The notes beneath the pieces were generated by a model. That model searched no databases. It saw only the letters and a list, made by a program, of their open reading frames with translations, and had not been told where the DNA came from. Positions 2,607-64,000 of a DNA stretch of 64,000 nucleotides are shown here, one piece after another. Made by a program: the position numbers and the translations under genes. Origin of the DNA: Opitutales bacterium (GTDB lineage: Bacteria; Verrucomicrobiota; Verrucomicrobiia; Opitutales; JABSRG01); assembly GCA_051117635.1 (NCBI GenBank), contig JBNPEH010000014.1:2786-66785 (forward strand), in the 5' to 3' direction. Position 1 is the stretch's first letter, and each line of letters begins with the position of its first letter.

Positions 2607-3074
2607 ATGCTCAACATGGCCGAGCCCCCGGACGGGGTCTTTATCTACCGCACCCGGACGCACTTCGACCAGCTGGATGCCCTCGATATCCTGCACCACA
2701 GTCGGTACTTCCTTTTCGCGGAACGGGCGCAGCAGGCATTCTTCGACCACGTGATGGAGGCGGAGACCTTCAACACGGAACGGTACACCGACCTTTACGC
2801 GGTCGTCCGGTCCGTGGACCTGGAGTACCTTCGCCCGATCGACGGGGTGTTCCCGTTTCATGTCGCGCTGGTGGTGGACCGGCTCCGGGAGGCGGCGCTC
2901 ACCACACGCGTCGGCTTTTTCGATGCAAGCGGCGAAACCCTCTACGCCCGCGGGCGACGCACCACCTGTCACCTGAGTCCCACCACCCATCAGCCGGCCG
3001 GCTGGAGCCCGCTCTTCCGCGAGCGCTTCGGCCACTGGGCGGAACGGGCACGGAGGGCCGATGTGTCGTTCTGA
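2607..3074 (+). CDS. Acyl-CoA thioesterase, hotdog fold (4HBT/YbgC-like)
   Basis: MLNMAEPPDGVFIYRTRTHFDQLDALDILHHSRYFLFAERAQQAFF resembles the N-terminal catalytic region of 4HBT-type thioesterases. Its size of about 155 aa fits the family. Same strand as the two upstream genes. Confidence 0.65.
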   Translation: MLNMAEPPDGVFIYRTRTHFDQLDALDILHHSRYFLFAERAQQAFFDHVMEAETFNTERYTDLYAVVRSVDLEYLRPIDGVFPFHVALVVDRLREAALTTRVGFFDASGETLYARGRRTTCHLSPTTHQPAGWSPLFRERFGHWAERARRADVSF

Positions 3075-3115
3075 ATCTCGGTTCGCTCGTTGGCGTGCCG
3101 TCCGGCGGGACAGGC

Positions 3116-20149: not shown

Positions 20150-20269
20150 TGGGCGCGCAGCCTAGCCATCCTTTATCGAGACTCAAGGCGCCGCCTGTGT
20201 GGGCTGTCCGGTCCCGGCGCTCACTTCAAATCGCCCGCACCCCTCCCAGGTATTCGTGCTGTATCGCTA

Positions 20270-20667
20270 GCCCGAACTTCTCACCAGAATCGGGAAACAG
20301 TGCGGTAAATAATACTGAACGAGGGATTTGCAGCATTTCTTCGAAATGCACGTTTGTGGTGTTGCCCTGTTTCCCGATTCTTTTCGCCCCACATGCGCGA
20401 TCTGCGGCGTGTTATGCTCGCTTCGCTCGTTGAGGTGTCGCCCTGCGGGCTCGGTAGTCGGGCTGGAAACCGCCTGGTTACGCACCTCAGTGCGCGCCCA
20501 GCCGGTTTCGCCCTCCCGCCGTCATGCCGCTCAGCGGCATTATGGCGGACACGCCGCCTTCCGCCGTCGTCCCGCTTAGCGGGACTTCCTCCTACGCCAA
20601 GGCTACGGCGGACATGATGGCGGACAGGGGCAGCTCATCACATCTGGGCTTCATGAGAAGTCCGGGC
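20270..20667. repeat. Copy A of a ~400-bp hairpin-rich repeat with terminal inverted repeats (MITE-like or structured RNA)
   Basis: Ends gcccgaacttctca (20270-20283) and tgagaagtccgggc (20654-20667) are inverted. The interior aligns along its whole length with 62740-63142, by eye roughly 85-90 percent identical. No conserved reading frame. Confidence 0.75.
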
Positions 20668-20835
20668 CAGGGCAGGGGATGGCCCCGGGGCAGAAGCGGT
20701 TCGCCTGGTCGGTTGCCTGTGCGAATGGGCGATCTGCGCCACTAGAGCATTGCCAAACCGGGAGGCGTAAGGCCTTGTGGCCGCCGCAGCGGGTCTGCAA
20801 AGTGGCTGCCATTCCCATTTGGGCTCAACTGATTC

Positions 20836-23800
20836 ATGGCCTTTCCAACCGCTTCATCCGAAACGCTCAGTCTGGAGAAGAAACGCCGGCTGTTCCGGCT
20901 GATGTTGACCAGTCGCCAGGGCGACCTGCGGGAGCAACGGCTGCTCCGGCAGGGCCAGGGCTGGTTTCATATCGCCGGGATGGGTCATGAGGGCATGGCC
21001 GTTCTCGGTGCGCTCCTCCGCGAGTCGGATTACGCCTTTCCCTATTATCGGGATCGGGCGCTGGCTCTGGCCAAAGGCATCACCACCGAGGATTTTGCGC
21101 GCGCATTCCTGGCCAAGCGCACCAGTTCCAGCGGGGGTCGGCAATTGACCGGCCACTTTTCCAGCCACATGCATCGGATTTTCAGCCACGCCTCACCCGT
21201 CGGGGCCCATGCCCTGCCCGCTGTCGGCTTTGGCTGGGGCATTCAATTGGACGGGCGGGACGACGTCGTTCTGTTGAGCCTCGGTGAGGCGGCCACCCGG
21301 CAGGGTGAATTCTACGAAGCGGTCTGTTTTGCCCAGGAGCACCGGCTGCCGGTCATCTTTGTCGTCGAGGACAACGGCCTGGCCATTTCCACCCATACCG
21401 AGGCCGGCACGCCGCGGACCCTCCAGCTGTTGGGCAACGACCGGTGGGTGGACGTGGACGGCCTCGATGTGGACGCGCTCCAGGCAGCCGGAAGTCGGGC
21501 GATTGAACGAGCGCGCGGCGGCGAGGGCCCGGGATACCTGTGGGTCCGCACCGCCCGGTTGCACAATCACAGCAGCACCGACGACCAGCGGCTTTATTTG
21601 ACCGAGCAGGAACAGGCTGCGTTGGAGGACCGCGATCCTGTCGCCCGTCTCCGTTCCGATCTCCTGGCTGCGGGTGAGGTGGATCGGGAGACCCTCGAGG
21701 CGGAGGAGGCCGACATCGCTGCGGAAATCCGTTCCATCTACGAACAGGTCGCCAGGGAAGAAGATCCGAAGGCGGAGGAACTCGTCCTGCACCTGGAAGG
21801 AGCGGCCCCCGAGCGAACCGGTCAGGAGGATGGTCCCGAGCTGCCCGATCCCTGCCGACTGGTGGACGCGGTCAATCTGACTTTCCGGCATGCGCTCGAA
21901 TCCCGTGAGGACGTCGTCTTCTTTGGCGAAGACATCGAGGACCCGAAGGGTGGGGTGTTCAACCTGACTAAGGGGCTCTCGTCCGATTTCCCCAAACGGG
22001 TGGTCAATGCGCCTGTCGCTGAGGCGACAATCTGCGGACTGGCCGTGGGTCTCGCCGCTTACGGTAAACGGCCCGTTTTCGAGCTTCAGTTCGTGGACTT
22101 CATCCACCCGGGCTGGAACCAGCTTTTCAACAACATGGCCAACCTCCGCTGGCGCACCTTCGGGGACTGGCGGTGCCCGGCCATTCTCTATGCCCCCTGC
22201 GGCGCCTACCTGCCGGGCGGAGCCATCTGGCACAGCCAGTCCGGAGAAAGTGCGCTGGCTCAGATTCCGGGCCTGCGGGTGCGGATGCCTTCCCGCCCGC
22301 ACGAGGCTCGCGAGGCCTTTCAGGAAGCTCTGGCCAGTGACGATCCGACCATCGTTCTCCTCCCCAAGCACCAGTTCTGGACCCGCCAGGCCGCGACACC
22401 GTCCGGGCGATCCGCCGGTATCCTGAGGGCGGTGCGTCGCCATACCGGCAACAGCCTGACGGTCGTCTCCTGGGGTAATCCGCTGGAGATCATCGATCAG
22501 GTCCTGGCCGACCGGGAGGACCTCTCCGGCGCCTTGGATGTCTATGACCTGGTTTCCCTCGCTCCCTGGGACCGCGAAACCGTGGCCGACTCGGTTCGCC
22601 GGACGGGCCGCCTGCTGGTTGTGCAGGAGGACACGCCGGCCTGCTCGATCGGTCAGCGGATCATCGCCGAACTGACCGGCGACCGCGCGGTGTTTGCCGC
22701 CCTGGTCGCCCCGCCGCGCCTGATCGCACGAGCCCCTGTTCCGATCGGCTTCAATCCCATTTACGAGTACGCCGCGCTCCCCGACCGTCCGGGTATCCAG
22801 GCTGCTGTCGACGCGTTGCTAGCCTGGTCGACCCCCGCTACCAACCGCCCGGTGGTTCCCCCCGCTTCCGCCGCTTCCGCCCCATCATCCCTGCCCATGA
22901 CTGATCAACCGCCGTCGCCGGCCGCCTCTTCCGGTCGCAAACAGATTAAGGTGCCCATCCTCGGCGAGGGTATTCGTGAAGCCCGGCTGGTCGCCTTGCT
23001 GAAGGAACCCGGCGAAGCCGTGGAGCCGGATGAAGCGGTTTGCGAAATCGAGACCGACAAGGCGGTCTTCCCCGTGGAAAGTCCCTGCGCGGGCACCTGG
23101 GAGGTCTGGGCCGTGGACGAGGGGGCCACCGTCAGCGTCGGGGATACCCTCGGTTCCCTTGTCCCGGATGATCCCGAACTGGCCGACGCCGAGCGTCCGT
23201 CTTCTTCCACGGCGGGGGTTGCGTCTGAGGATTCGGAGGGGGAGGGGGACGCCAACGAGGTGGCCCTGCGGCAGGCGCCCGGGCTCCCGGAAGGCGTTCT
23301 CCGGCAACTGCCCGGAATCGTGCCCGCGACCATCACCATTCAAGCTGCCTGGTCTGCCATCAAGGAAGCGCGCCGTGCGGCGAAGGAAGAGGCCGGTTCC
23401 ACCGGTGAAGCCCCGAGCCCCTCGCTGATGGTCGCCTGGTCAGTCACCCGGGCGATGCGCCAGCACCCTGTCTTTGCCTCGATCGTCAAGGGCCGGCAAC
23501 TCCTCTTCGATCCCGACGGCTTCGACCTCGGGGTGGCGGTCGCCCTGGATAACGACGCCCTGGAAACAGCCGCCGTCCGCAAAGCCGGTACCCTGGACTG
23601 GCCCCGGTTCCAGGAGGCCTACCGGGCTGCCGTCCGTGCGGTCCGGGCCGGCGAGGTAGCGTCCAAAGCCCGCGTTTCCCTGCAGCTTTCGTCTCTGGGC
23701 ACCTTTCCCGTCATTCATGCCGTTCCCATCGTCGTGCCTCCGGCCGTGGCGACCCTCTTTGTCGGTAATGCCCGGCTGAGGCCGCGTGAATCGAACGACG

Positions 23801-23961
23801 GTGTGCTGCATGAACCCGTGGTCGACCTCGTCCTGACCTTTGACCACCGCTGGGTTAACGGGGTGGGTGCCGCCGCTTTCCTCAACGATATCCGGCGGCG
23901 GATGGAGGAATTCGATCTCCAACATCCGGAGAAGGAACCCTCCGACAGCGGCCGGGCATGA
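20836..23961 (+). CDS. 2-oxoacid dehydrogenase E1alpha-E1beta-lipoyl-E2 fusion protein (single 1041-aa polypeptide)
   Basis: - aa 1 to ~330: E1 alpha TPP-binding region (SLGEAATRQGEFYEAVCFAQEHRLPVIFVVEDNGLAIS).
- aa ~345-680: E1 beta (VVFFGEDIEDPKGGVFNLTKGL, VVNAPVAEATICGLAVGLA).
- aa ~700-775: lipoyl domain with the CEIETDKAVFPVESP lipoyl-lysine motif.
- aa ~800-1041: acyltransferase catalytic domain with LTFDHRWVNGVGAAAFL. Confidence 0.85.
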   Translation: MAFPTASSETLSLEKKRRLFRLMLTSRQGDLREQRLLRQGQGWFHIAGMGHEGMAVLGALLRESDYAFPYYRDRALALAKGITTEDFARAFLAKRTSSSGGRQLTGHFSSHMHRIFSHASPVGAHALPAVGFGWGIQLDGRDDVVLLSLGEAATRQGEFYEAVCFAQEHRLPVIFVVEDNGLAISTHTEAGTPRTLQLLGNDRWVDVDGLDVDALQAAGSRAIERARGGEGPGYLWVRTARLHNHSSTDDQRLYLTEQEQAALEDRDPVARLRSDLLAAGEVDRETLEAEEADIAAEIRSIYEQVAREEDPKAEELVLHLEGAAPERTGQEDGPELPDPCRLVDAVNLTFRHALESREDVVFFGEDIEDPKGGVFNLTKGLSSDFPKRVVNAPVAEATICGLAVGLAAYGKRPVFELQFVDFIHPGWNQLFNNMANLRWRTFGDWRCPAILYAPCGAYLPGGAIWHSQSGESALAQIPGLRVRMPSRPHEAREAFQEALASDDPTIVLLPKHQFWTRQAATPSGRSAGILRAVRRHTGNSLTVVSWGNPLEIIDQVLADREDLSGALDVYDLVSLAPWDRETVADSVRRTGRLLVVQEDTPACSIGQRIIAELTGDRAVFAALVAPPRLIARAPVPIGFNPIYEYAALPDRPGIQAAVDALLAWSTPATNRPVVPPASAASAPSSLPMTDQPPSPAASSGRKQIKVPILGEGIREARLVALLKEPGEAVEPDEAVCEIETDKAVFPVESPCAGTWEVWAVDEGATVSVGDTLGSLVPDDPELADAERPSSSTAGVASEDSEGEGDANEVALRQAPGLPEGVLRQLPGIVPATITIQAAWSAIKEARRAAKEEAGSTGEAPSPSLMVAWSVTRAMRQHPVFASIVKGRQLLFDPDGFDLGVAVALDNDALETAAVRKAGTLDWPRFQEAYRAAVRAVRAGEVASKARVSLQLSSLGTFPVIHAVPIVVPPAVATLFVGNARLRPRESNDGVLHEPVVDLVLTFDHRWVNGVGAAAFLNDIRRRMEEFDLQHPEKEPSDSGRA

Positions 23962-25418: not shown

Positions 25419-28400
25419 ATCGGCCTTCAGCCCTTGCTCCAGTTTCTCCAGCGCACGTGACAATCGGAGGATTTCCCCGTCGGTTTCCACCCATGCCTCC
25501 CGTTCCGGAAACTGGCCCGATCGCAACCGGTCCTCAATGGGTCTCAGGATGTTGGATACATTGGAAAAGCCCACCAGGTCGCACTTGCCGGCAATGTGGT
25601 GCACCGCCCGGGCTGCCGCCTTCGGGTCTTCGCCGGTCAGGGCCGCCCGGGCCTGAGCCCACCCGTTGCGAATATCACGCCGCAGGGTCCGGACCGCCTC
25701 CAGGCGGGCTGTCGGGTCGTCCTTGCGATAGAACAGGTAGTCGGTTCGCAGCGGCGGGTCGTCGGCGGCCGGGGCGGCGGCGTCGCTCTCGGAAGTCGGG
25801 ATTGCTGTCTCACTCATGGATTGGGTCGACCGGCCGAATGCCTTCGTCAGGCCACTCAAGACACCACGGAGGTGGTCGGGGTCCACCGGTTTGCTGATAA
25901 ACCCGTCCATTCCCGCGTCCAGGCAGGCCTTCCGGCTTTGTTCGGTGGCATAGGCGGTCACCGCGAAGATCGGTACCGAGCGCAGGGTTTTGATGCGGCG
26001 GGCGAATTCGGGTCCCTCGCCGTCGGGCAGGCTGAAGTCCAGTAGCACCGCGTCGAATCGATCCTGGCGAAACACCCTCAGCCCGTTTTCGCCGTCCCCG
26101 GCGACCTGGGAGGTGCATCCGCACGCCTCCAGCATCTCCGCAATCACCTGCCGGTTGTAGACGTCGTCCTCGATGACCAGGACATGCAGGTCCAGCGGTT
26201 CGGACGATGCGAGGGGCAGGGCAACCCCGCCCGCCGGCTCGGAGACCTGCCCGCCCTCCTCCGCCTGAACGGGGGAGCTGTCCGTTTCCGAAAGCGTCAG
26301 TTCGAAACTGAAGCAGGTGCCCTGACCCGGTTGCGAGTCCACTTTCAGGGAACCGCCCAGACTCAGGGTGAGGGCGCGTGCGATGGATAGCCCCAGGCCG
26401 CTGCCGCCGCCCGGCATCAGTCGCCGCCCGGAGGAACCCTGCGCATAGGGCTCGAATATCCGGGCGCGCTCCTCTTTGGGAATGCCGAGCCCCGTGTCTT
26501 CGATGCTGAAGCGGGCGGTCAGCCGGCCCGGTCGGGAGCCGCCCCGGGTCTCGCAATGGACCCGGATGCCCCCGGTTTCCGTAAATTTGATGCCATTGGA
26601 AACCAGGTTGGCCAGGACATCGAGCAGGATCTGTCGGTCGACCAGAACGGGCGCTTCGGCGCCCTTGTAGTCGATCTTCAAATACAGCCCTTTGGCCTCT
26701 ACCTGATAGGCGAAGAGACTCTCCAGGGTGGTCAGGACCGACTCCAGCGCGACCGGTTCGGGGTTGGGGACCACTTTGCCGGATTCGATTTTGGAGAAGT
26801 TGAGCACGTCGTCGATATGACCCTTGAGGTATTGGCCGCAGGCCAGGATGCGCTCCAGAGAGGGCCTCAGTTCCGGGTGCTCCGCCCGTTTCAGCAGCAG
26901 TTGGCTGGTGCCGATGATGCCGTTGAGCGGGTTGCGAATGTCGTGGCTCATGCGTGCGACAAAGGCCGACTTCGCCTTGCTCGCGCGGTTCAGGTTTTCA
27001 TTGGCCTTGATCAGTTCGAGCGTCCGGGAACGGACTGATTCCTCCAGGATGGCGTTGATCTTGCGCAGGCGGCGAGTCCGCCAGTGGCCCAGGGCCAGCA
27101 GACCGATTACCGCGACGAAGGCATACCCGGTGTAGGCTCCCCAGGTGCGGTACCAGGGTGGGGCGATGCTGAAGCGCAGTTCGGCCGGCGGGGAAAGCTG
27201 GCCGGCCAGATCCCGTTGACGTACCTCGAAGACGTAGTCTCCCTCGCGCAGGTTCGTGAAATCGCGGTAGGTTTGTCGGTTCCAGTTGGACCAGTCCGAT
27301 TCGAATCCCCGCAACCGGGTCTGGAACTCCACGTGGCCGCCCAGATGGAATTGCGGCGCTGCGAATGCGAAGCGAAGGTCGTTGAAGGCGAAGGGCAGTT
27401 GCTCCAGTGCCTCGCCCGTCAGCGGCAGGGAGGCCCGTTGGCCGGGAGCATCCGGGTCGCGGTGCGCCAGCCGGCGCAGCAGGGGAGGCTCCGGTTGTTC
27501 GGGCTCCGCAGGCGGCTCGACTGTAGTCCGGATTAATCCCGTGCTGGCATTGAGCCAGAGGGTGTCTTCTTCGGCAACCAGACTCCACACCTTGCCGCCG
27601 AACGATCCGGGCAGGGTGCGCAGGGTGCCGACCTCGATGGGATCGTCCGGAAGCGCACCGCGAAGCCACAATAATCGGGCCCGTTGCCTGTCCTCGGCCA
27701 GATGGTAAACAAAGGCTTCATGGCCACCCGGGGCTGATCCCAGGACCGAGTTCTGCGCATTTATCCCGGGTGAAAGGATCCGCTCCCGCCGGCCAGGATT
27801 GTGCGGATCGTGGATTTCAAAAAGACCCGCCTCGTCCAGCACCAACAGCCGTTGGTTGATTTTTGCGAACTGCGGGGGATTGCGTCGGTTCGGCAGCGAG
27901 CCCTCACCGCTGAGACGCGTCGTCACGAACCGATAGCCCGTCCCGGAAGGGTGGATACCCACGCGGTATACGCCGTTGTTGACTCCGGTCAGAAGCAGTT
28001 GGCCGTCCGCCAGCTCGACGAATGAGGAAATCGGCCCGGGAATATCTTCAAGCACCCCGCCCGGGACCCAACCCGAAGCCTCCCGCAGATAGTGGCGGGC
28101 GCCGGTGTTGCTGCCGGTAAACAACAAATCATCGTAGGTTTTTGATGGATACACAGTGAACACCTGCCCGGCGTCCCCGTCGATGGTGGTCAGTCTCCCG
28201 CCGTCCCAGGCCAGCAATCCCGCCTGGGAGCCAATCAGCAGCGGTCCTCCCCGGGGCGTGGCCAAATCAAAAGCAGGTCTGCTGAGGCCGGGTACCTGCC
28301 GGAACCGGGGGACCAGAGAATCAGCTGCCCGATCCAGGCGATAGATGTTGTTGCCCGCCGCGACATGAAGGTTGTTGTCGTACCGCGCGGCTGCCAGAAC

Positions 28401-33488: not shown

Positions 33489-33566
33489 GCTTACGATCGA
33501 CCCCGTTAGCCGGAAGTTCTCACCGGAATCGGAAAAAAGGGGAGTAGGCCTCTACCTCGAAGCGGC

Positions 33567-45779: not shown

Positions 45780-46184
45780 ATGGCCAAAAAACGCAGATCC
45801 CTGACCTCTTCCGGCGGCATGAGTGAGATCAACATCTCGCCGCTGATCGACATGGTCTTTATCCTGCTGATCTTTTTCATTGTAGCCGCTGTCTTTGTCG
45901 AAGAGCCGGGCGTCGAAGTGAATCGCGTCTTCACGGTCTCCGGTGACAGCCTGGAAAAGAATGCCATCCTGTTCGCGATTACCAACGACAACGAGGTTGT
46001 CTACGGGGGCGAAAATGTCGGTGTCCTCTCGGTGCGTCCGATTGTGGATCGGCTCAAGGCTACAAAGGACATGCCGGTCATCCTCCAGGTCGATGAAGGC
46101 AGTGACGCCTCGGTCGTCGTCCGTGTCATCGATGAGGCCAAGATCGCCGGCGCGGCCACTTTCATCGCCACCGAGAAACCCTGA
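45780..46184 (+). CDS. exbD: ExbD/TolR biopolymer transport protein
   Basis: INISPLIDMVFILLIFFIV TM motif, 134 aa. Confidence 0.85.
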   Translation: MAKKRRSLTSSGGMSEINISPLIDMVFILLIFFIVAAVFVEEPGVEVNRVFTVSGDSLEKNAILFAITNDNEVVYGGENVGVLSVRPIVDRLKATKDMPVILQVDEGSDASVVVRVIDEAKIAGAATFIATEKP

Positions 46185-46215: not shown

Positions 46216-46611
46216 GTGAAGAAATCCCTCCGCAAAGCCGAGAAGTCTGAAGAAATCAACATGTCGCCGTTGATCGACATGGTGTTCATCCTGTTGATCT
46301 TCTTCATCGTCACGACCGTGTTCATCGACGAGCGCGGGTTTGAATCCGCTCAGCCTGACGATGCTTCGGAAACCGACAGCGAGGAGGAGCCGATCATCCT
46401 GCACGTTACCAAGAGCCGCAAAGTGTTGTTGAACGGCCAGGAAATCGGATTTGCCGGTGTTCAGCGCGAGGTCCGCAACCGGATCCAGGGAGAACCCGAG
46501 CCAGTCATCCTCCAGGTGGACCAGGGTACGGTTTCCGCCGATGCCCTCCGTGTTTACGATGAGGCGCTGTTGGCCGGCGCGCTGGCGGTCACGATGCAAC
46601 AGGCCAATTGA
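46216..46611 (+). CDS. exbD: ExbD/TolR biopolymer transport protein (second copy, GTG start)
   Basis: EINMSPLIDMVFILLIFFIV parallels the upstream paralog, 131 aa. Confidence 0.8.
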   Translation: MKKSLRKAEKSEEINMSPLIDMVFILLIFFIVTTVFIDERGFESAQPDDASETDSEEEPIILHVTKSRKVLLNGQEIGFAGVQREVRNRIQGEPEPVILQVDQGTVSADALRVYDEALLAGALAVTMQQAN

Positions 46612-48710: not shown

Positions 48711-48737
48711 GGTCGCGACAACCTTCGCTTTTTACTC

Positions 48738-48768
48738 AACCGGCCTCCTGCGGGAGGCCGGTTTTTTT
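48738..48768 (+). terminator. Rho-independent terminator after the TPR gene
   Basis: Stem ccggcctcc / ggaggccgg with loop tgcg, followed by 7 T. Confidence 0.8.
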
Positions 48769-48777
48769 GTCCGCGCG

Positions 48778-48861
48778 CTACCGACACCCGGTGAGCGACC
48801 CGTCGTCAGAAGGTAATGATGGCCTGCGGGAGGGCCGCCGTCCCCGGCGGCCGCCATGGGG
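48778..48861. repeat. 84-bp direct repeat, copy 1
   Basis: ctaccgacacccggtgagcgacccgtcgtcagaaggtaatgatggcctgcgggagggccgccgtccccggcggccgccatggggg is nearly identical to 48963-49046. It contains the hairpin ggccgcc-gtcccc-ggcggcc. Confidence 0.85.
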
Positions 48862-48962
48862 GCAGGGAAATCCCGCATGCCGAAAACGGCGCGGTACGCA
48901 GGCTGGAATTGCCTCGCCTGGAATTGCCTCGCGCGGCGGTCGGGGCGACCGCCCTCCCGGAG

Positions 48963-49046
48963 TATCGACACCCGGTGGGCGACCCGTCGTCAGAAGGTAA
49001 TGATGGCCTGCGGGAGGGCCGCCGTCCCCGGCGGCCGCCATGGGGG
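48963..49046. repeat. 84-bp direct repeat, copy 2
   Basis: tatcgacacccggtgggcgacccgtcgtcagaaggtaatgatggcctgcgggagggccgccgtccccggcggccgccatggggg. The spacer between the copies carries a tandem 15-mer, ctggaattgcctcgc x2 (48903-48932). Confidence 0.85.
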
Positions 49047-49161
49047 ATCCGATGGTCACTCAGCCGCCATTGTGTACCTTTGGAAGGATTTCAAAAAAAA
49101 GCCGGGGCTCCCGAAGGAGCCCCGGCTGACAAAGGAACCAGATTTCGAGCGGTGCCCCGGC

Positions 49162-61118: not shown

Positions 61119-62522
61119 ATGCACGATGCAGCGGTCCGCCCGTTATTCTTCACCGTCCCCATGGCCCTTTTCCAAAATGCGTCGGTTCCGGTCGCCTGTC
61201 TGCCGCCGGATTTCCCCCGGCCCGACGGGTTCGACCCCCAGCTCGATCCCAGTGTCCGCGTGGATTTCCGGACCGATGCCGAGCGCATCCGCGAGGTCTT
61301 CCCGGCCGGCCGGACCGGTCCGGCCGAAGGCGAAACCGCCCACGACCTGGCAGGCACCCAGTGCTGGCCAGGCCTTCTCGATGTCCATGTCCACCTCGAC
61401 AAGGCCCATTCCTGGGACCGCGCGCCCAACCGCCGCGGCGAGTTCTGGGATGCCATCTACCTGCTGCGTCGCGACAAAGACAACTGGACCGCCGATGATG
61501 TCCGGCGCCGCGCGCAGTTTTCGCTCGAATCAGCCTGGGCGCACGGGTCGACCGCCGTTCGGACCCACATCGATGTCGGCATGGATTTCGGGGAGAGCAG
61601 TCTGGCCGTGATGGCCGAACTCCGCGCCGCCTGGGACGGTCGGATCTCCCTCCAGACGGTGACCCTTTCCGGCCTCGAAGACTTTGCCCGGGGAGCGGGG
61701 GAGGCCATCGCCGCCAAGGCCAGGGCCCATGGCGTGACGGCTCTGGGTGTCATGCCCATCACCAATCCCGATTTGCCCGGGCAGTGGGACCGCTTCCTGG
61801 CCATCGCCCGGGATCACGGGCTGGGGGTCGACTGTCATGTCGACGAAAACGGCGATCCCGGGGCGCGTTGCCTCGACGCGCTGGCGGAGTCGGTCCTGCG
61901 CACCGGGTTCGACCTCCCCGTTGCCAGTGGCCACAATTGCAGCCTGGCCGTGCAACCGCCGGACCGGCAGCGCGAAACCCTCGCCAAGGTCAGGGACGCC
62001 GGGATCGACATCATTTCCCTGCCGCTCTGCAACCTCTACCTGCAGGACCGGCGACGCGAATCGACTGCCGGCGTGCAGGCCGGTCCGGACACCGAACCCG
62101 ATTTCGACGCTCCGCTCGGACCGCCGGAAACCCCGCGTTGGCGGGGCATCACCCTGCTGCACGAGTTCATGGAAGCCGGGGTAACGACCGCCGTGGCCAG
62201 CGACAACGTGCGCGACGCCTTTTATGCCTATGGCGATCTCGACGCCTTCGAGGTCTGGCTCTTTACCCACCGGCTGGCCCACCTGGACCTCAATCTCGCC
62301 CGTTCTCCCGAAACCGTGACCACCGCCCCGGCCCGTATCATGGGCCTGGATACGGATCATGGGGTCATTGGCCCCGGTGCCCGGGCCGACCTTATCGTAT
62401 TTCCCGGTCGCCGGACACTCAGCCACCTCCTCAGCCGGCCCTGGGAGCCGCGCCGCCTGATCCGCGGCGAGGGCTTTCGCGAGCCCGAGCTGCCCGACTA
62501 CGACCGCGTGGCGCCGGGCTGA
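61119..62522 (+). CDS. Cytosine deaminase-like metal-dependent amidohydrolase (CodA/AtzC-type)
   Basis: LLDVHVHLDK metal-binding HxH motif, VRTHIDV, VDCHVDE, ASGHNCSL and ASDNVRDAFY blocks, collinear with E. coli CodA as I recall it. The start is uncertain (61119 or MALFQ at 61161). Confidence 0.8.
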   Translation: MHDAAVRPLFFTVPMALFQNASVPVACLPPDFPRPDGFDPQLDPSVRVDFRTDAERIREVFPAGRTGPAEGETAHDLAGTQCWPGLLDVHVHLDKAHSWDRAPNRRGEFWDAIYLLRRDKDNWTADDVRRRAQFSLESAWAHGSTAVRTHIDVGMDFGESSLAVMAELRAAWDGRISLQTVTLSGLEDFARGAGEAIAAKARAHGVTALGVMPITNPDLPGQWDRFLAIARDHGLGVDCHVDENGDPGARCLDALAESVLRTGFDLPVASGHNCSLAVQPPDRQRETLAKVRDAGIDIISLPLCNLYLQDRRRESTAGVQAGPDTEPDFDAPLGPPETPRWRGITLLHEFMEAGVTTAVASDNVRDAFYAYGDLDAFEVWLFTHRLAHLDLNLARSPETVTTAPARIMGLDTDHGVIGPGARADLIVFPGRRTLSHLLSRPWEPRRLIRGEGFREPELPDYDRVAPG

Positions 62523-62537: not shown

Positions 62538-62746
62538 CTAAGGCGTGTTCGAAAAGTCTTCTTGGAGTCGCGAACGCCGGCCGACCTGTCCGTCATAGCC
62601 ATTTGAGCGCCGGCGGAAGAGCCGGCGTCTCCATGGAGTGGCGGGCTCTACCCCGTCCGCCGAAGCTTTTTGCGTAGGAGGAGGCCCGCCAAACGCGAAA
62701 AAGCCGTCCTTTTTCCGCTTATCTCGACTTTTCAAACACGCCTTAA
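62538..62746. repeat. 209-bp unit bounded by 21-bp inverted repeats, sharing an end motif with repeat copy B
   Basis: ctaaggcgtgttcgaaaagtc (62538-62558) versus gacttttcaaacacgccttaa (62726-62746), 19/21 complementary. The interior contains ccgccgaagctttttgcgtaggaggaggcccg, an inverted relative of the cgggacttcctcctacgccaaggctacggcgg core of the 400-bp repeat. Confidence 0.65.
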
Positions 62747-63142
62747 CCCGAATTCCTCACCAGAACCGGAAAAAATGGCAGTAAATAGTTGGAAGTAAGG
62801 GATTTCCAGCATTTCTTCGAAGTGCACGTTCGGGGTAATCCCATCTTTTCCGATTCTTTTCGCCCACAGGCGCGATCTGCGGCGTGTTATTCTTGCTGCG
62901 CTCGTTGAGGTGTCGCCCTGCGGGCTCGGCAGTCGGGCTGGAAACCGCCTGGTTGCGCACGCCAGTGCGCGCCCAACCGCTTTCGCCCTCCCGCCGTCAC
63001 CCTCCGGGTTATGGCGGACACGCCGCCTTCCGCCGTCGTCCCGCCTGGCGGGACTTCCTCCTACGCCAAGGCTACGGCGGACATGATGGCGGACAGGTGC
63101 AGCTCATCCCATCTGGGCTTCATGAGAAATCCGGGTTAAGGC
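62740..63142. repeat. Copy B of the ~400-bp hairpin-rich repeat with terminal inverted repeats
   Basis: The 20-bp ends gccttaacccgaattcctca (62740-62759) and tgagaaatccgggttaaggc (63123-63142) are 18/20 inverted. The interior is collinear with 20270-20667. Confidence 0.75.
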
Positions 63143-63231: not shown

Positions 63232-64000
63232 ATGCGCGTATCCCTGCTTTCGGATGAAAAACGACCCGGCTTGCTGAAGCGGCTGCAGGGCATGGGCCTG
63301 CGCGTGCAGATGGATCCACCGGAAAAGATCCAGACCCTGAGCAAGGAGAGCACGGATCTGGTTTACTTTGTTCCCTTTTCGCTGACCGAAACGGAAGACT
63401 GGTTCGAACACCGGGTCAGCCTGGCTCGGGCCAGCCGCTATTATGTCGTCTTTGGCGACAACCTGAGCACCGCCCGAATCATGGATGCGGCGCGCGATGG
63501 CGCGCATGATGTCGTCGATGAGCGGGATGACGACCAACGCATTGCGAGCGCTCTCGACCAGGCGGCCAACGCACAGGACCTCTGGTGGCAACTGTACGGG
63601 GGAAAGGGTGAGATTTCGGAAGAAAAACTGGTCGGGCGGAGCCCGGCCATGCGTGCCTTGCGTGAATCGGTCCAGCGCATCGGCCCGACTGAAGCGACGG
63701 TATTGATCATGGGTGAGAGCGGCACCGGCAAGGAACGCGTGGCCGAAGCGGTTCAACTGGCTTACGGTCGGGGACCGCTGGTTACCGTGAACTGCGCCGC
63801 AATTCCCTCCGAGCTGATGGAGGCGGAGTTGTTTGGCGTCGAGAAAGGGGCCTACACCGGCGCGCACAAGACCAAGTCCGGCCTGGTTGAGGAGGCGACC
63901 GATGGGATCCTGTTTCTCGACGAGATCGGCGAGATGGATATCAGCCTCCAGCCGAAGCTGCTCCGTTTCCTGGAAACAAAGATCGCCCGTCGCGTCGGGT
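63232..64000 (+). CDS. Sigma-54-dependent transcriptional activator with atypical N-terminal receiver-like domain, 3' end beyond the window
   Basis: Absent from the ORF track because no stop is reached. My own translation from ATG 63232 reads MRVSLLSDEKRPGLLKRLQGMGL... then LVGRSPAMRALRESVQRIGPTEATVLIMGESGTGKERVAEAV, NCAAIPSELMEAELFGVEKGAYTGA and ILFLDEIGEM, which are the AAA+ sigma-54 interaction motifs. Confidence 0.85.
   Translation, partial: MRVSLLSDEKRPGLLKRLQGMGLRVQMDPPEKIQTLSKESTDLVYFVPFSLTETEDWFEHRVSLARASRYYVVFGDNLSTARIMDAARDGAHDVVDERDDDQRIASALDQAANAQDLWWQLYGGKGEISEEKLVGRSPAMRALRESVQRIGPTEATVLIMGESGTGKERVAEAVQLAYGRGPLVTVNCAAIPSELMEAELFGVEKGAYTGAHKTKSGLVEEATDGILFLDEIGEMDISLQPKLLRFLETKIARRVG

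Follow-up and report, generated by a model that had tools for sequence, protein, structure and literature searches.

Intergenic repeats rich in hairpins from an uncultured Opitutales lineage: a putative MITE-like family, two of whose copies carry a nested REP-type module

Two closely similar intergenic sequences of about 400 nt occur in a 64-kb stretch of genomic DNA from an Opitutales bacterium (the whole stretch is hereafter called the window), and they raise the question of whether such a repeat is a mobile element, the gene of a structured RNA, or something of both. A first-pass annotation had suggested either a structured RNA or a MITE/PATE-like element, and these remain the leading readings, although its description had to be corrected in several respects; among others, the unit proper measures ca. 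295 nt, and wobble pairs indicate the complement of the strand described. Copy A (positions 20267 to 20670, 404 nt) and copy B (62743 to 63139, 397 nt) are given here as full elements including a nested module, and on the minus strand, which is the predicted folding strand, whereas the earlier description followed the plus strand of copy A. The claim that the two are collinear and lie on the same strand was borne out by the alignment, with 87.8% identity over 401 nt (20268-20666 against 62744-63135 by blastn) and 53 substitutions between them. Divergence is uneven, a repeat finder giving 78% identity in the first 122 nt (the 5′ third) and 93 to 94% in the remainder.

Both copies are intergenic and upstream of plus-strand genes, as had been annotated. 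Copy A stands 165 nt before the gene starting at 20836, with a minus-strand operon of the xanthine-dehydrogenase type on one side and, on the plus strand, a fused E1/E2 2-oxoacid dehydrogenase on the other, while copy B stands 91 nt before a sigma-54 activator (plus strand, start at 63232) and follows an amidohydrolase, also on the plus strand. Read on the minus strand, copy A lies 118 nt upstream of the minus-strand operon, and copy B runs into the 3′ end of a convergent gene. No transposase was seen near the copies among the proteins scanned in the window, the neighbors being ordinary metabolic and regulatory genes. The host belongs to a poorly sampled, uncultured lineage of Verrucomicrobiota (Opitutales); for the 1,041-aa fused dehydrogenase downstream of copy A, the next relative is just 52% identical.

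A search for further copies, which the first-pass annotation had proposed, yielded one more full copy and one relic. Copy C (295 nt) lies on a 560-bp ENA metagenome contig (L127:173-467) and was found via P0121, a 60-aa spurious ORF matched at E=1e-18 when a profile of the frame +1 translation was compared with 1.84 billion protein representatives; a concatenated six-frame protein query had returned nothing, and the clean single-frame profile then matched P0121. It is 85.6% identical to A and 81.3% to B. Its similarity to both starts and stops at identical termini, and its flanks match nothing in the window; likewise, the homology of copy A with B and C is bounded by its limits, with unrelated sequence outside. 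Copy X (33504 to 33546, minus strand; nhmmer with a profile of A and B, model positions 1-43, E=4e-5) is a truncated relic of the left (plus-strand) end alone, of which it retains the terminal repeat plus the left stem arm of domain I (see below). It is ca. 80% identical to B and begins at the terminal base at which A, B, and C also begin. Another candidate fragment, at 3072-3113, was marginal (E=0.06). The sample therefore amounts to 3.5 copies, A, B, and C being full and X truncated, and judging from these alignments the element is a discrete unit, with full copies in at least three unrelated contexts and one relic.

Wider searches gave no additional members. A 20-mer from the most conserved block, GACTTCCTCCTACGCCAAGG, detected no copy of the element in 185,579 species genomes, its matches being a short motif in a Bdellovibrionota MAG and one chance match in coding sequence. 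A metagenome scan with CTACGCCAAGGCNNCGGCGGACA gave no further full-length element among the matches listed, which were instances of a widespread hairpin treated below. Neither viral-contig scans with three element-specific patterns nor blastn against plasmids and phages produced a match.

The position of the two window copies, 91 to 165 nt upstream of a plus-strand gene and in the same orientation, is what a cis-regulatory 5′ leader (riboswitch-like) of those genes would show. However, the genes that follow are unrelated (fused E1/E2 2-oxoacid dehydrogenase and sigma-54 activator), the relic has the same orientation as A and B but sits in a 78-nt gap with minus-strand genes on both sides, no Rfam family was matched, and the wobble pairs favor the opposite strand. 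Variation among copies in their orientation toward neighboring genes, which would speak against a leader, is already partly apparent. A leader of this kind is, in our judgment, very improbable.

Copy C also revealed that A and B are composite. A stretch of 108 nt in A (20521 to 20628) and 103 nt in B (62996 to 63098), both described on the plus strand, is missing from copy C, in which homology to A resumes at 20629, immediately past it. By this comparison the element proper is ca. 295 nt long, and A and B carry an extra, REP-type module.

The limits of the unit are marked by inverted ends, which the first reading had reported and which we found in both copies as CCCGRAYTTCTCA, at 20271-20283/20654-20666 in A and 62747-62759/63123-63135 in B. 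Complementarity runs 4 bp further outward (CTAG/CCAG in A, TTAA/TTAA in B), and altogether the termini of A, B, and C are complementary over 14 to 18 bp with one to three mismatches, the homology among copies ending there. The terminus has the consensus GCCCGRAY.TCTCA and abuts a TA within a palindromic YTAR site. This TA abuts five of the six observable ends (left and right in B and C, left in A), the right end of copy A reading CA; relic X is preceded by TTA at its left end. The reconstructed targets are TTAA for B, TTAA for C, and CTAG for A.

These flanks partly answer the matter of target-site duplications that the earlier annotation had brought up. A duplicated TA in a palindromic target would suit ERIC- or Correia-type MITEs or elements of the IS630/Tc1 type, for which a TA target duplication is characteristic, but the TA is itself palindromic and extends the inverted repeat, and it can equally be read as part of a terminal stem. 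An IS5-like direct duplication of the 4-bp YTAR target was refuted by copy C, whose left end carries TTAG and whose right end carries CTAA. The 4-bp flank may belong to the target and not to the element, in which case the apparent covariation there could simply mirror differing TA-containing target sites. Within the 64-kb window, no further termini of this type were present beyond chance, and no parent IS with such termini was seen. Concern that the copies might be fragments of a known IS or gene was not substantiated, as they matched no known IS, gene, or Rfam family. A resemblance of the right end to the conserved GAGGAAAGUCCGGGC of RNase P RNA was treated as chance, being without Rfam support.

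The original statement that the copies encode no transposase and share no reading frame also held. Stops occur in all six frames, synonymous changes make up about a quarter of the differing codons in each of them, and protein coding was rejected because no frame has an excess of synonymous differences. The profile searches in frame +1 yielded the spurious ORF P0121 and no other protein. The multicopy intergenic occurrence, the suitable size, and the end-to-end pairing would nonetheless be compatible with a type I toxin-antitoxin locus (hok/ldr-like), in which a folded mRNA of ca. 400 nt with paired 5′ and 3′ ends encodes a small toxic peptide; hok mRNAs resemble the element in size and in the pairing of their ends, and a minus-strand frame (VHFEEML...) stays open in each of the three full copies. 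This frame, however, lacks a Shine-Dalgarno sequence, is hydrophilic rather than hydrophobic, has changed mostly at non-synonymous sites, and ends at differing points outside the element. A hok-like toxin ORF was rejected on the first three of these grounds, and a toxin-antitoxin locus as a whole appears extremely improbable.

If not a protein, the selected feature could be a fold. When the structure of a single copy was predicted and the 53 substitutions of the other copy were mapped onto it, 7 to 8 pairs were compensated against ca. 1 expected, a value reached by none of 5,000 random relocations of the same substitutions, and 10 to 15 pairs were broken against 22 to 25 expected; this holds with either copy as reference and on either strand. 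In a consensus structure of A and B, nine pairs had changed on both sides, compared with none or one when the 3′ partners were slid by one to three columns, two of these nine compensated pairs lying in the 4-bp flank that may be target sequence and two others deriving from a hairpin aligned across an indel, in the nested module that has no counterpart in C. The curated structure of all three copies has standard pairs in 97.2% of its cells and again nine double-changed pairs against none or one in the slid controls, counts that rest on three sequences and a hand-curated structure and stand below R-scape-grade statistics. In these models, the fold is kept by compensatory changes.

The covariation asserted in the first-pass annotation thus exceeds its controls, although part of the material on which it was built belongs elsewhere. 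The helices that it listed are all present, but in gcatttc-ttc-gaaatgc, said to vary in the loop, the loop is constant and copy B has instead a G.T in the stem, and the atgccgc/accc and tcccgc-NNN-gcggga hairpins lie within the nested module. Since this module is missing from copy C, they are uninformative about the element's own fold.

Some observations run counter to selection on pairing. In copy C, two pairs have changed on both sides without restoring complementarity (T-A to C.C and C-G to A.A), and paired positions are not depleted in substitutions, of which 33 to 38 of the 53 fall there. In addition, the compensated pairs cluster in the arms of inverted repeats, namely the termini, the subterminal helix, and a single long hairpin stem. 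All this would suit palindromic DNA that is selfish or neutral and has no role as RNA, in which complementarity arises by template switching between the arms of quasi-palindromes, or in which the ends derive from different masters co-evolving with a transposase.

The distribution of wobble pairs speaks against such an origin. The minus strand has G.U wobbles at 12 sites and the plus strand at 2 (binomial p=0.013; 10 and 2 with helix-end pairs dropped), a count that depends on our own curated structure. Correction of one arm by the other predicts perfect complements and no strand bias, and the one-sided wobble therefore argues against an origin of the complementarity that is purely double stranded or by arm-to-arm copying. 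Neutral palindromic DNA would also leave unexplained the center of the element, whose conservation exceeds that of the arms three-fold whichever two copies are compared, and we regard this reading as quite improbable. The consensus energies point in the same direction as the wobble count, with -173 kcal/mol for the minus and -151 for the plus strand in the two-copy structure and -132 and -123, respectively, with three copies. The evidence for the minus strand as the folding strand is suggestive rather than decisive; with the bias on that side, the placement of A and B upstream of plus-strand genes is probably incidental.

The structure of the ca. 295-nt core was curated by hand as 84 pairs on the minus strand, with the three copies aligned and the module removed. 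As modeled, it is a three-way junction with long-range helices and not a simple foldback. Its outermost helix, P1, is the terminal inverted repeat (in copy A, left arm 20267 to 20284 with right arm 20653 to 20670). Of its 18 pairs, 3 have changed on both sides, 2 have changed on one side to a wobble, and 1 is broken, in C only; should the 4-bp flank belong to the target, two of these three compensated P1 pairs would not count as covariation. Inside P1 follows domain I (20286 to 20381, minus strand), a 96-nt hairpin domain that interrupts the left end, with an 18-pair stem and an AT-rich interior that encloses a small hairpin at 20333-20349. In its distal stem, each of the three full copies has complementary sequences of its own, with four pairs changed on both sides.

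The subterminal long-range helix P2 joins 20386 to 20405 with 20630 to 20649 (left and right arms as read on the plus strand; folding on the minus strand). Its 16 pairs are standard in all three copies on the minus strand despite changes from T-A to G-C in B and from C-G to T-A and C.A to T-A in C, and it turns up again when copy C is folded by itself to minimum energy. The strongest helices, P2 and the distal stem of domain I, emerged clearly only with the third copy. Between the arms of P2 lie the conserved center, or core a (20406 to 20459), whose predicted structure is one short hairpin at 20440-20450, and P5 (20460 to 20513, minus strand), a long imperfect hairpin of 21 pairs formed by GGGCTGGAAACCG...CGGTTTCGCCC with the tip cgcac-NNNN-gtgcg. 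In P5, 95% of the cells are paired, the loop varies (CTCA, GCCA, or TTGA), and one closing pair is lost in C. A further helix predicted for A and B, P3 (GGCGGCGTGT with ACACGCCGCC), was discarded as not conserved, its 3′ arm falling within the module that C does not have. Fold z-scores ranged from -5.5 to -8 across the folds tested; copy A reached ca. -8 (-8.0 and -7.5 on its two strands, against shuffled sequences).

Conservation along the element does not follow its ends. Across the three pairwise comparisons, identity ranges from 75 to 90% in the termini, 67 to 84% in domain I, and 85 to 96% in the center, the center being better conserved than termini and domain I in all three. Core a, which is 54 nt long and has little predicted structure, stands at 93% identity in each of the three comparisons. 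Such a profile is unlike that of dead copies decaying uniformly and unlike the result of selection on the termini through transposase recognition alone.

This conserved center is the main argument for a function of the center itself, and also for an alternative in which the repeat is a multicopy gene for a stand-alone structured noncoding RNA of ca. 300 nt, transcribed from the minus strand, the copies being selected paralogues. P1 would be the closing stem, P2 would surround the conserved center and P5, and domain I would be a peripheral hairpin domain. The constancy of core a, peripheral helices that vary yet stay paired, loops that vary freely, the asymmetric wobble, the more stable fold of the minus strand, and the appearance of P2 in the independent fold of copy C would all be at home in an RNA gene. 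Against it, neither a sigma-70-like promoter nor an intrinsic terminator was detected at the element ends on either strand, although classic terminators are used elsewhere in this genome, and the minus strand of B heads into the 3′ end of a convergent gene. (A sigma-54 promoter suspected in copy B had, on inspection, the wrong spacing.) The truncated relic, the nested insertion, and the TA-flanked inverted termini are typical of mobile DNA, and the strand count leans on the curated structure.

No relative was found in the databases searched either. An Rfam scan, suggested by the earlier annotation, matched no family to the element: a tRNA elsewhere in the window was the sole match at the gathering threshold, and the matches at E<10 were implausible (e.g., a human lncRNA and a miRNA). 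The exact 20-mer in the species genomes and BLAST against plasmids and phages were equally negative. The element shares with large structured noncoding RNAs (OLE, GOLLD, ROOL, raiA, HEARO/omega RNA) a length of ca. 300 nt, covarying helices, and a conserved core, but it differs from them in having no Rfam match (gathering threshold or E<10), no associated protein gene, and transposon-like ends. An RNA gene is thus an alternative to be taken seriously, if unlikely.

Alternatively, the ca. 295-nt unit might be a previously undescribed large structured RNA gene, with a three-way junction and a conserved core and on the minus strand, that is itself mobile, its fold being selected because the single-stranded form (RNA or one DNA strand) would be a propagation intermediate or a recognition substrate. 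This is a speculative proposal that we consider decidedly unlikely; if true, it would make the element a bacterial analogue of a structured non-autonomous element mobilized as a retroelement or as single-stranded DNA, and not a passive DDE-type MITE.

With moderate confidence, we favor instead a new MITE-like family of hairpin-rich intergenic repeats in which a single-stranded fold is under selection, the bacterial MITE class being taken to include ERIC, Correia, and BOX elements. Shared limits with unrelated flanks, inverted termini, TA at five of six ends, and the absence of coding support the MITE part of this reading; termini and domain I less conserved than the center, the opposite of what transposase recognition alone predicts, and a fold more complex than a simple foldback stand against it. 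By analogy, from which all of the mechanism is drawn, the unit would be, or have been, copied to new TA sites by an end-recognizing transposase supplied in trans. The selected feature would be the fold of one single strand, most likely an RNA produced by read-through of neighboring genes, in which it might, as ERIC, Correia, and REP elements do, influence the stability, processing, or termination of the transcript. The REP-type module would represent a second small palindromic element, independent of the larger unit and inserted later.

Among known repeats, the modular build recalls pneumococcal BOX elements and the BIMEs of E. coli, in which end modules can pair and internal hairpin modules vary between copies, comparable to the internal hairpin module present in A and B and not in C. 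There is no sequence relation, however, and the modules here are nested insertions and not variable tandem boxB or REP units. Bacterial MITEs have terminal inverted repeats, no transposase, and long stem-loops, and reach up to ca. 400 bp, ERIC-type elements being TA-flanked (PMC3184786). The element agrees with the ERIC and Correia (NEMIS) MITEs in being non-autonomous and intergenic, without a transposase, with terminal inverted repeats, TA at both ends, and a strong stem-loop potential, those MITEs being often co-transcribed with their neighbors (PMC3184786). Its size (295 to 404 nt) lies within the MITE range, up to ca. 400 to 435 bp (PMC3184786). In contrast to ERIC and Correia elements, its fold is a branched three-way junction and not one long foldback, its termini are less conserved than its center, the repeat at its flanks is an ambiguous TA, and 3.5 copies were examined.

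Small repeats of Verrucomicrobiota are known mainly as the REPs of Opitutus terrae. Should the MITE-like reading be correct, a well-delimited family would be added to this phylum, together with a clean example of nesting, a REP-type module within a larger repeat. The better conservation of the center than of the ends and the one-sided wobble both suggest selection on a single-stranded fold of one strand.

The nested module deserves description in its own right. It is a series of small GC-rich hairpins, two of them each preceded by CCGCCGTC and followed by the widespread hairpin already mentioned. In copy A, CCGCCGTC precedes ATGCCGC-TCA-GCGGCAT (20520-20539) and GTCCCGC-TTA-GCGGGAC (20565-20584), and the arrangement is the same in B. 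These hairpins are GC-rich palindromic units of the 20- to 40-bp kind with an unpaired CGTC tag. Published CGTC families have a stem of 8 to 9 bp starting with A-T pairs, a loop of 4 to 5 nt, and a CCA tail (PMC3733652), whereas the module stems have 7 bp (4 bp in the first hairpin of B), with loops of 3 nt and no CCA tail. Membership in a published CGTC family was rejected on this mismatch of stem, loop, and tail, and because of it we use the name REP-type for the module.

The likeness to REP elements (GTAG- and CGTC-tagged; PMC3733652) is confined to the module and comprises GC-rich hairpins of 17 to 33 nt, the CGTC preceding two of them, and alternative complementary stems between copies. 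For REPs, nested palindromic units and insertions inside genes are on record, most abundantly from Opitutus terrae (PMC3733652); as REPs do, especially those of that species, the widespread hairpin occurs both between genes and in frame within them (PMC3733652). It differs from REPs in having GTA/GTA in an internal loop and no terminal GTAG tag. In the 64-kb window, units of the module are not abundant, being found inside the element and at one further site (see below), and no RAYT was present among the window proteins scanned.

The core of the widespread hairpin is the 23-mer CTACGCCAAGGCTACGGCGGACA (20592 to 20614 in A and 63061-63083 in B, plus strand). With any two bases at its center, it recurs verbatim in at least 120 metagenome contigs and four viral contigs, in host DNA whose G+C content spans 33% to 67%, and the remainder of the element is in none of the contigs listed. 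Roughly half of the listed instances fall inside crude ORFs, in all three frames. The six cases checked inside intact genes were in a leucyl-tRNA synthetase, a type I restriction S subunit, an amidohydrolase, an ankyrin-repeat protein kinase, an FtsJ-like methyltransferase, and a rhamnosidase. By analogy, REP and RPE palindromic units are described as behaving in this way. The hairpin sequence, searched as a string in the literature, gave no match, and Rfam applied to 20 loci carrying the hairpin returned only a tRNA. The possibility that the hairpin caps a longer stem formed by its flanks was rejected, the flanks being no different from shuffled ones. A sequence kept verbatim over such a range of G+C content, and inside intact genes, merits a separate study.

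Apart from the copies in the element, the window contains one separate relative of the widespread hairpin (62654 to 62701, minus strand; nhmmer E=8e-4, model positions 303-350), located 40 nt to the left of copy B and 3′ of the gene at 61119-62522, where it overlaps a terminator-like site.

The hairpin core nested in the REP-type module of copies A and B of the inverted-repeat-bounded element is a 23-mer, CTACGCCAAGGCnnCGGCGGACA, located at positions 20592 to 20614 and 63061 to 63083 of the window and at loci L001 and L003 to L126 on metagenome and viral contigs. Its extended consensus reads tCCGC-CTACGCCAAGGCT[A/T]CGGCGGACA-rG, in which the hairpin TCCGCC/GGCGGA has a symmetric TAC/TAC internal loop (GUA/GUA), and tandem expansions of the two halves were found at some loci (L025, L037, L093, and L118).

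Verbatim copies of this 23-mer were present in at least 120 metagenome contigs and four viral contigs, and the G+C content of the surrounding host DNA ranged from 33 to 67%. For a REP-like unit, the same sequence over such a broad range of base composition seems unusual. The intergenic sites frequently lie 20 to 40 nt past the end of a co-oriented gene. The 23-mer also appeared within intact genes, in all three frames, among them those for LeuRS, HsdS, an amidohydrolase, a protein kinase, an FtsJ-like methyltransferase, and a rhamnosidase. The Rfam search with the hairpin matched no family, and a literature search for its sequence as a text string gave no match.

A diverged relative of the hairpin (CCTCCTACGCAAAAAGCTTCGGCGGAC) was located on the minus strand at 62654 to 62701, where it overlaps a terminator-like site. 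It follows the stop codon of an amidohydrolase gene in the window by 130 nt and precedes copy B by 40 nt. Two other short stretches resemble parts of the element itself. The first, of 34 to 42 nt (3072 to 3113), lies in a 41-nt gap between two convergent genes and is ca. 79% identical to the conserved center of the element (model positions 147 to 188 of the nhmmer profile); the match is marginal (E = 0.06), and the stretch may be another relic of the element or a chance likeness. The second, TTCCTCACCAG, lies at L127:128-140, ca. 35 nt to the left of the third full copy (copy C), and equals 11 nt of the left terminus of copy B; here too, it may be a leftover of another copy or a coincidence.

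The right end of copy A with its flank (20654 to 20700, GAGAAGTCCGGGCCAGGGCAGGGG) resembles GAGGAAAGUCCGGGCUCCAUAGGGCAGGG, a conserved sequence in the RNase P RNA of bacteria. Since none of the RNase P models scored at an E value of <10, the likeness is probably due to chance in GC-rich DNA.

The window contains other direct repeats. Two 84-nt repeats (48779 to 48862 and 48963 to 49046), 98% identical and 184 nt apart, sit in an intergenic region of ca. 450 nt between a plus-strand gene and a TonB-dependent receptor gene, with classic intrinsic terminators at both edges (48737 to 48768 on the plus strand and 49098 to 49128 on the minus strand). Rfam gave no match here; a related 32-mer was found at 26090 to 26121. 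A 93-nt direct repeat (45825 to 45917 and 46252 to 46344, 76% identical) was judged, by the translated motif EINISPLIDMVFILLIFF, to represent two neighboring paralogous genes, putatively ExbD/TolR-like.

Positions 20836 to 23961 encode a single protein of 1,041 amino acids that joins the E1 alpha, E1 beta, lipoyl, and E2 catalytic domains of a 2-oxoacid dehydrogenase. Among the matches listed, this five-domain fusion was common to all 120 homologues, whose names, where given, indicate Opitutales and relatives.
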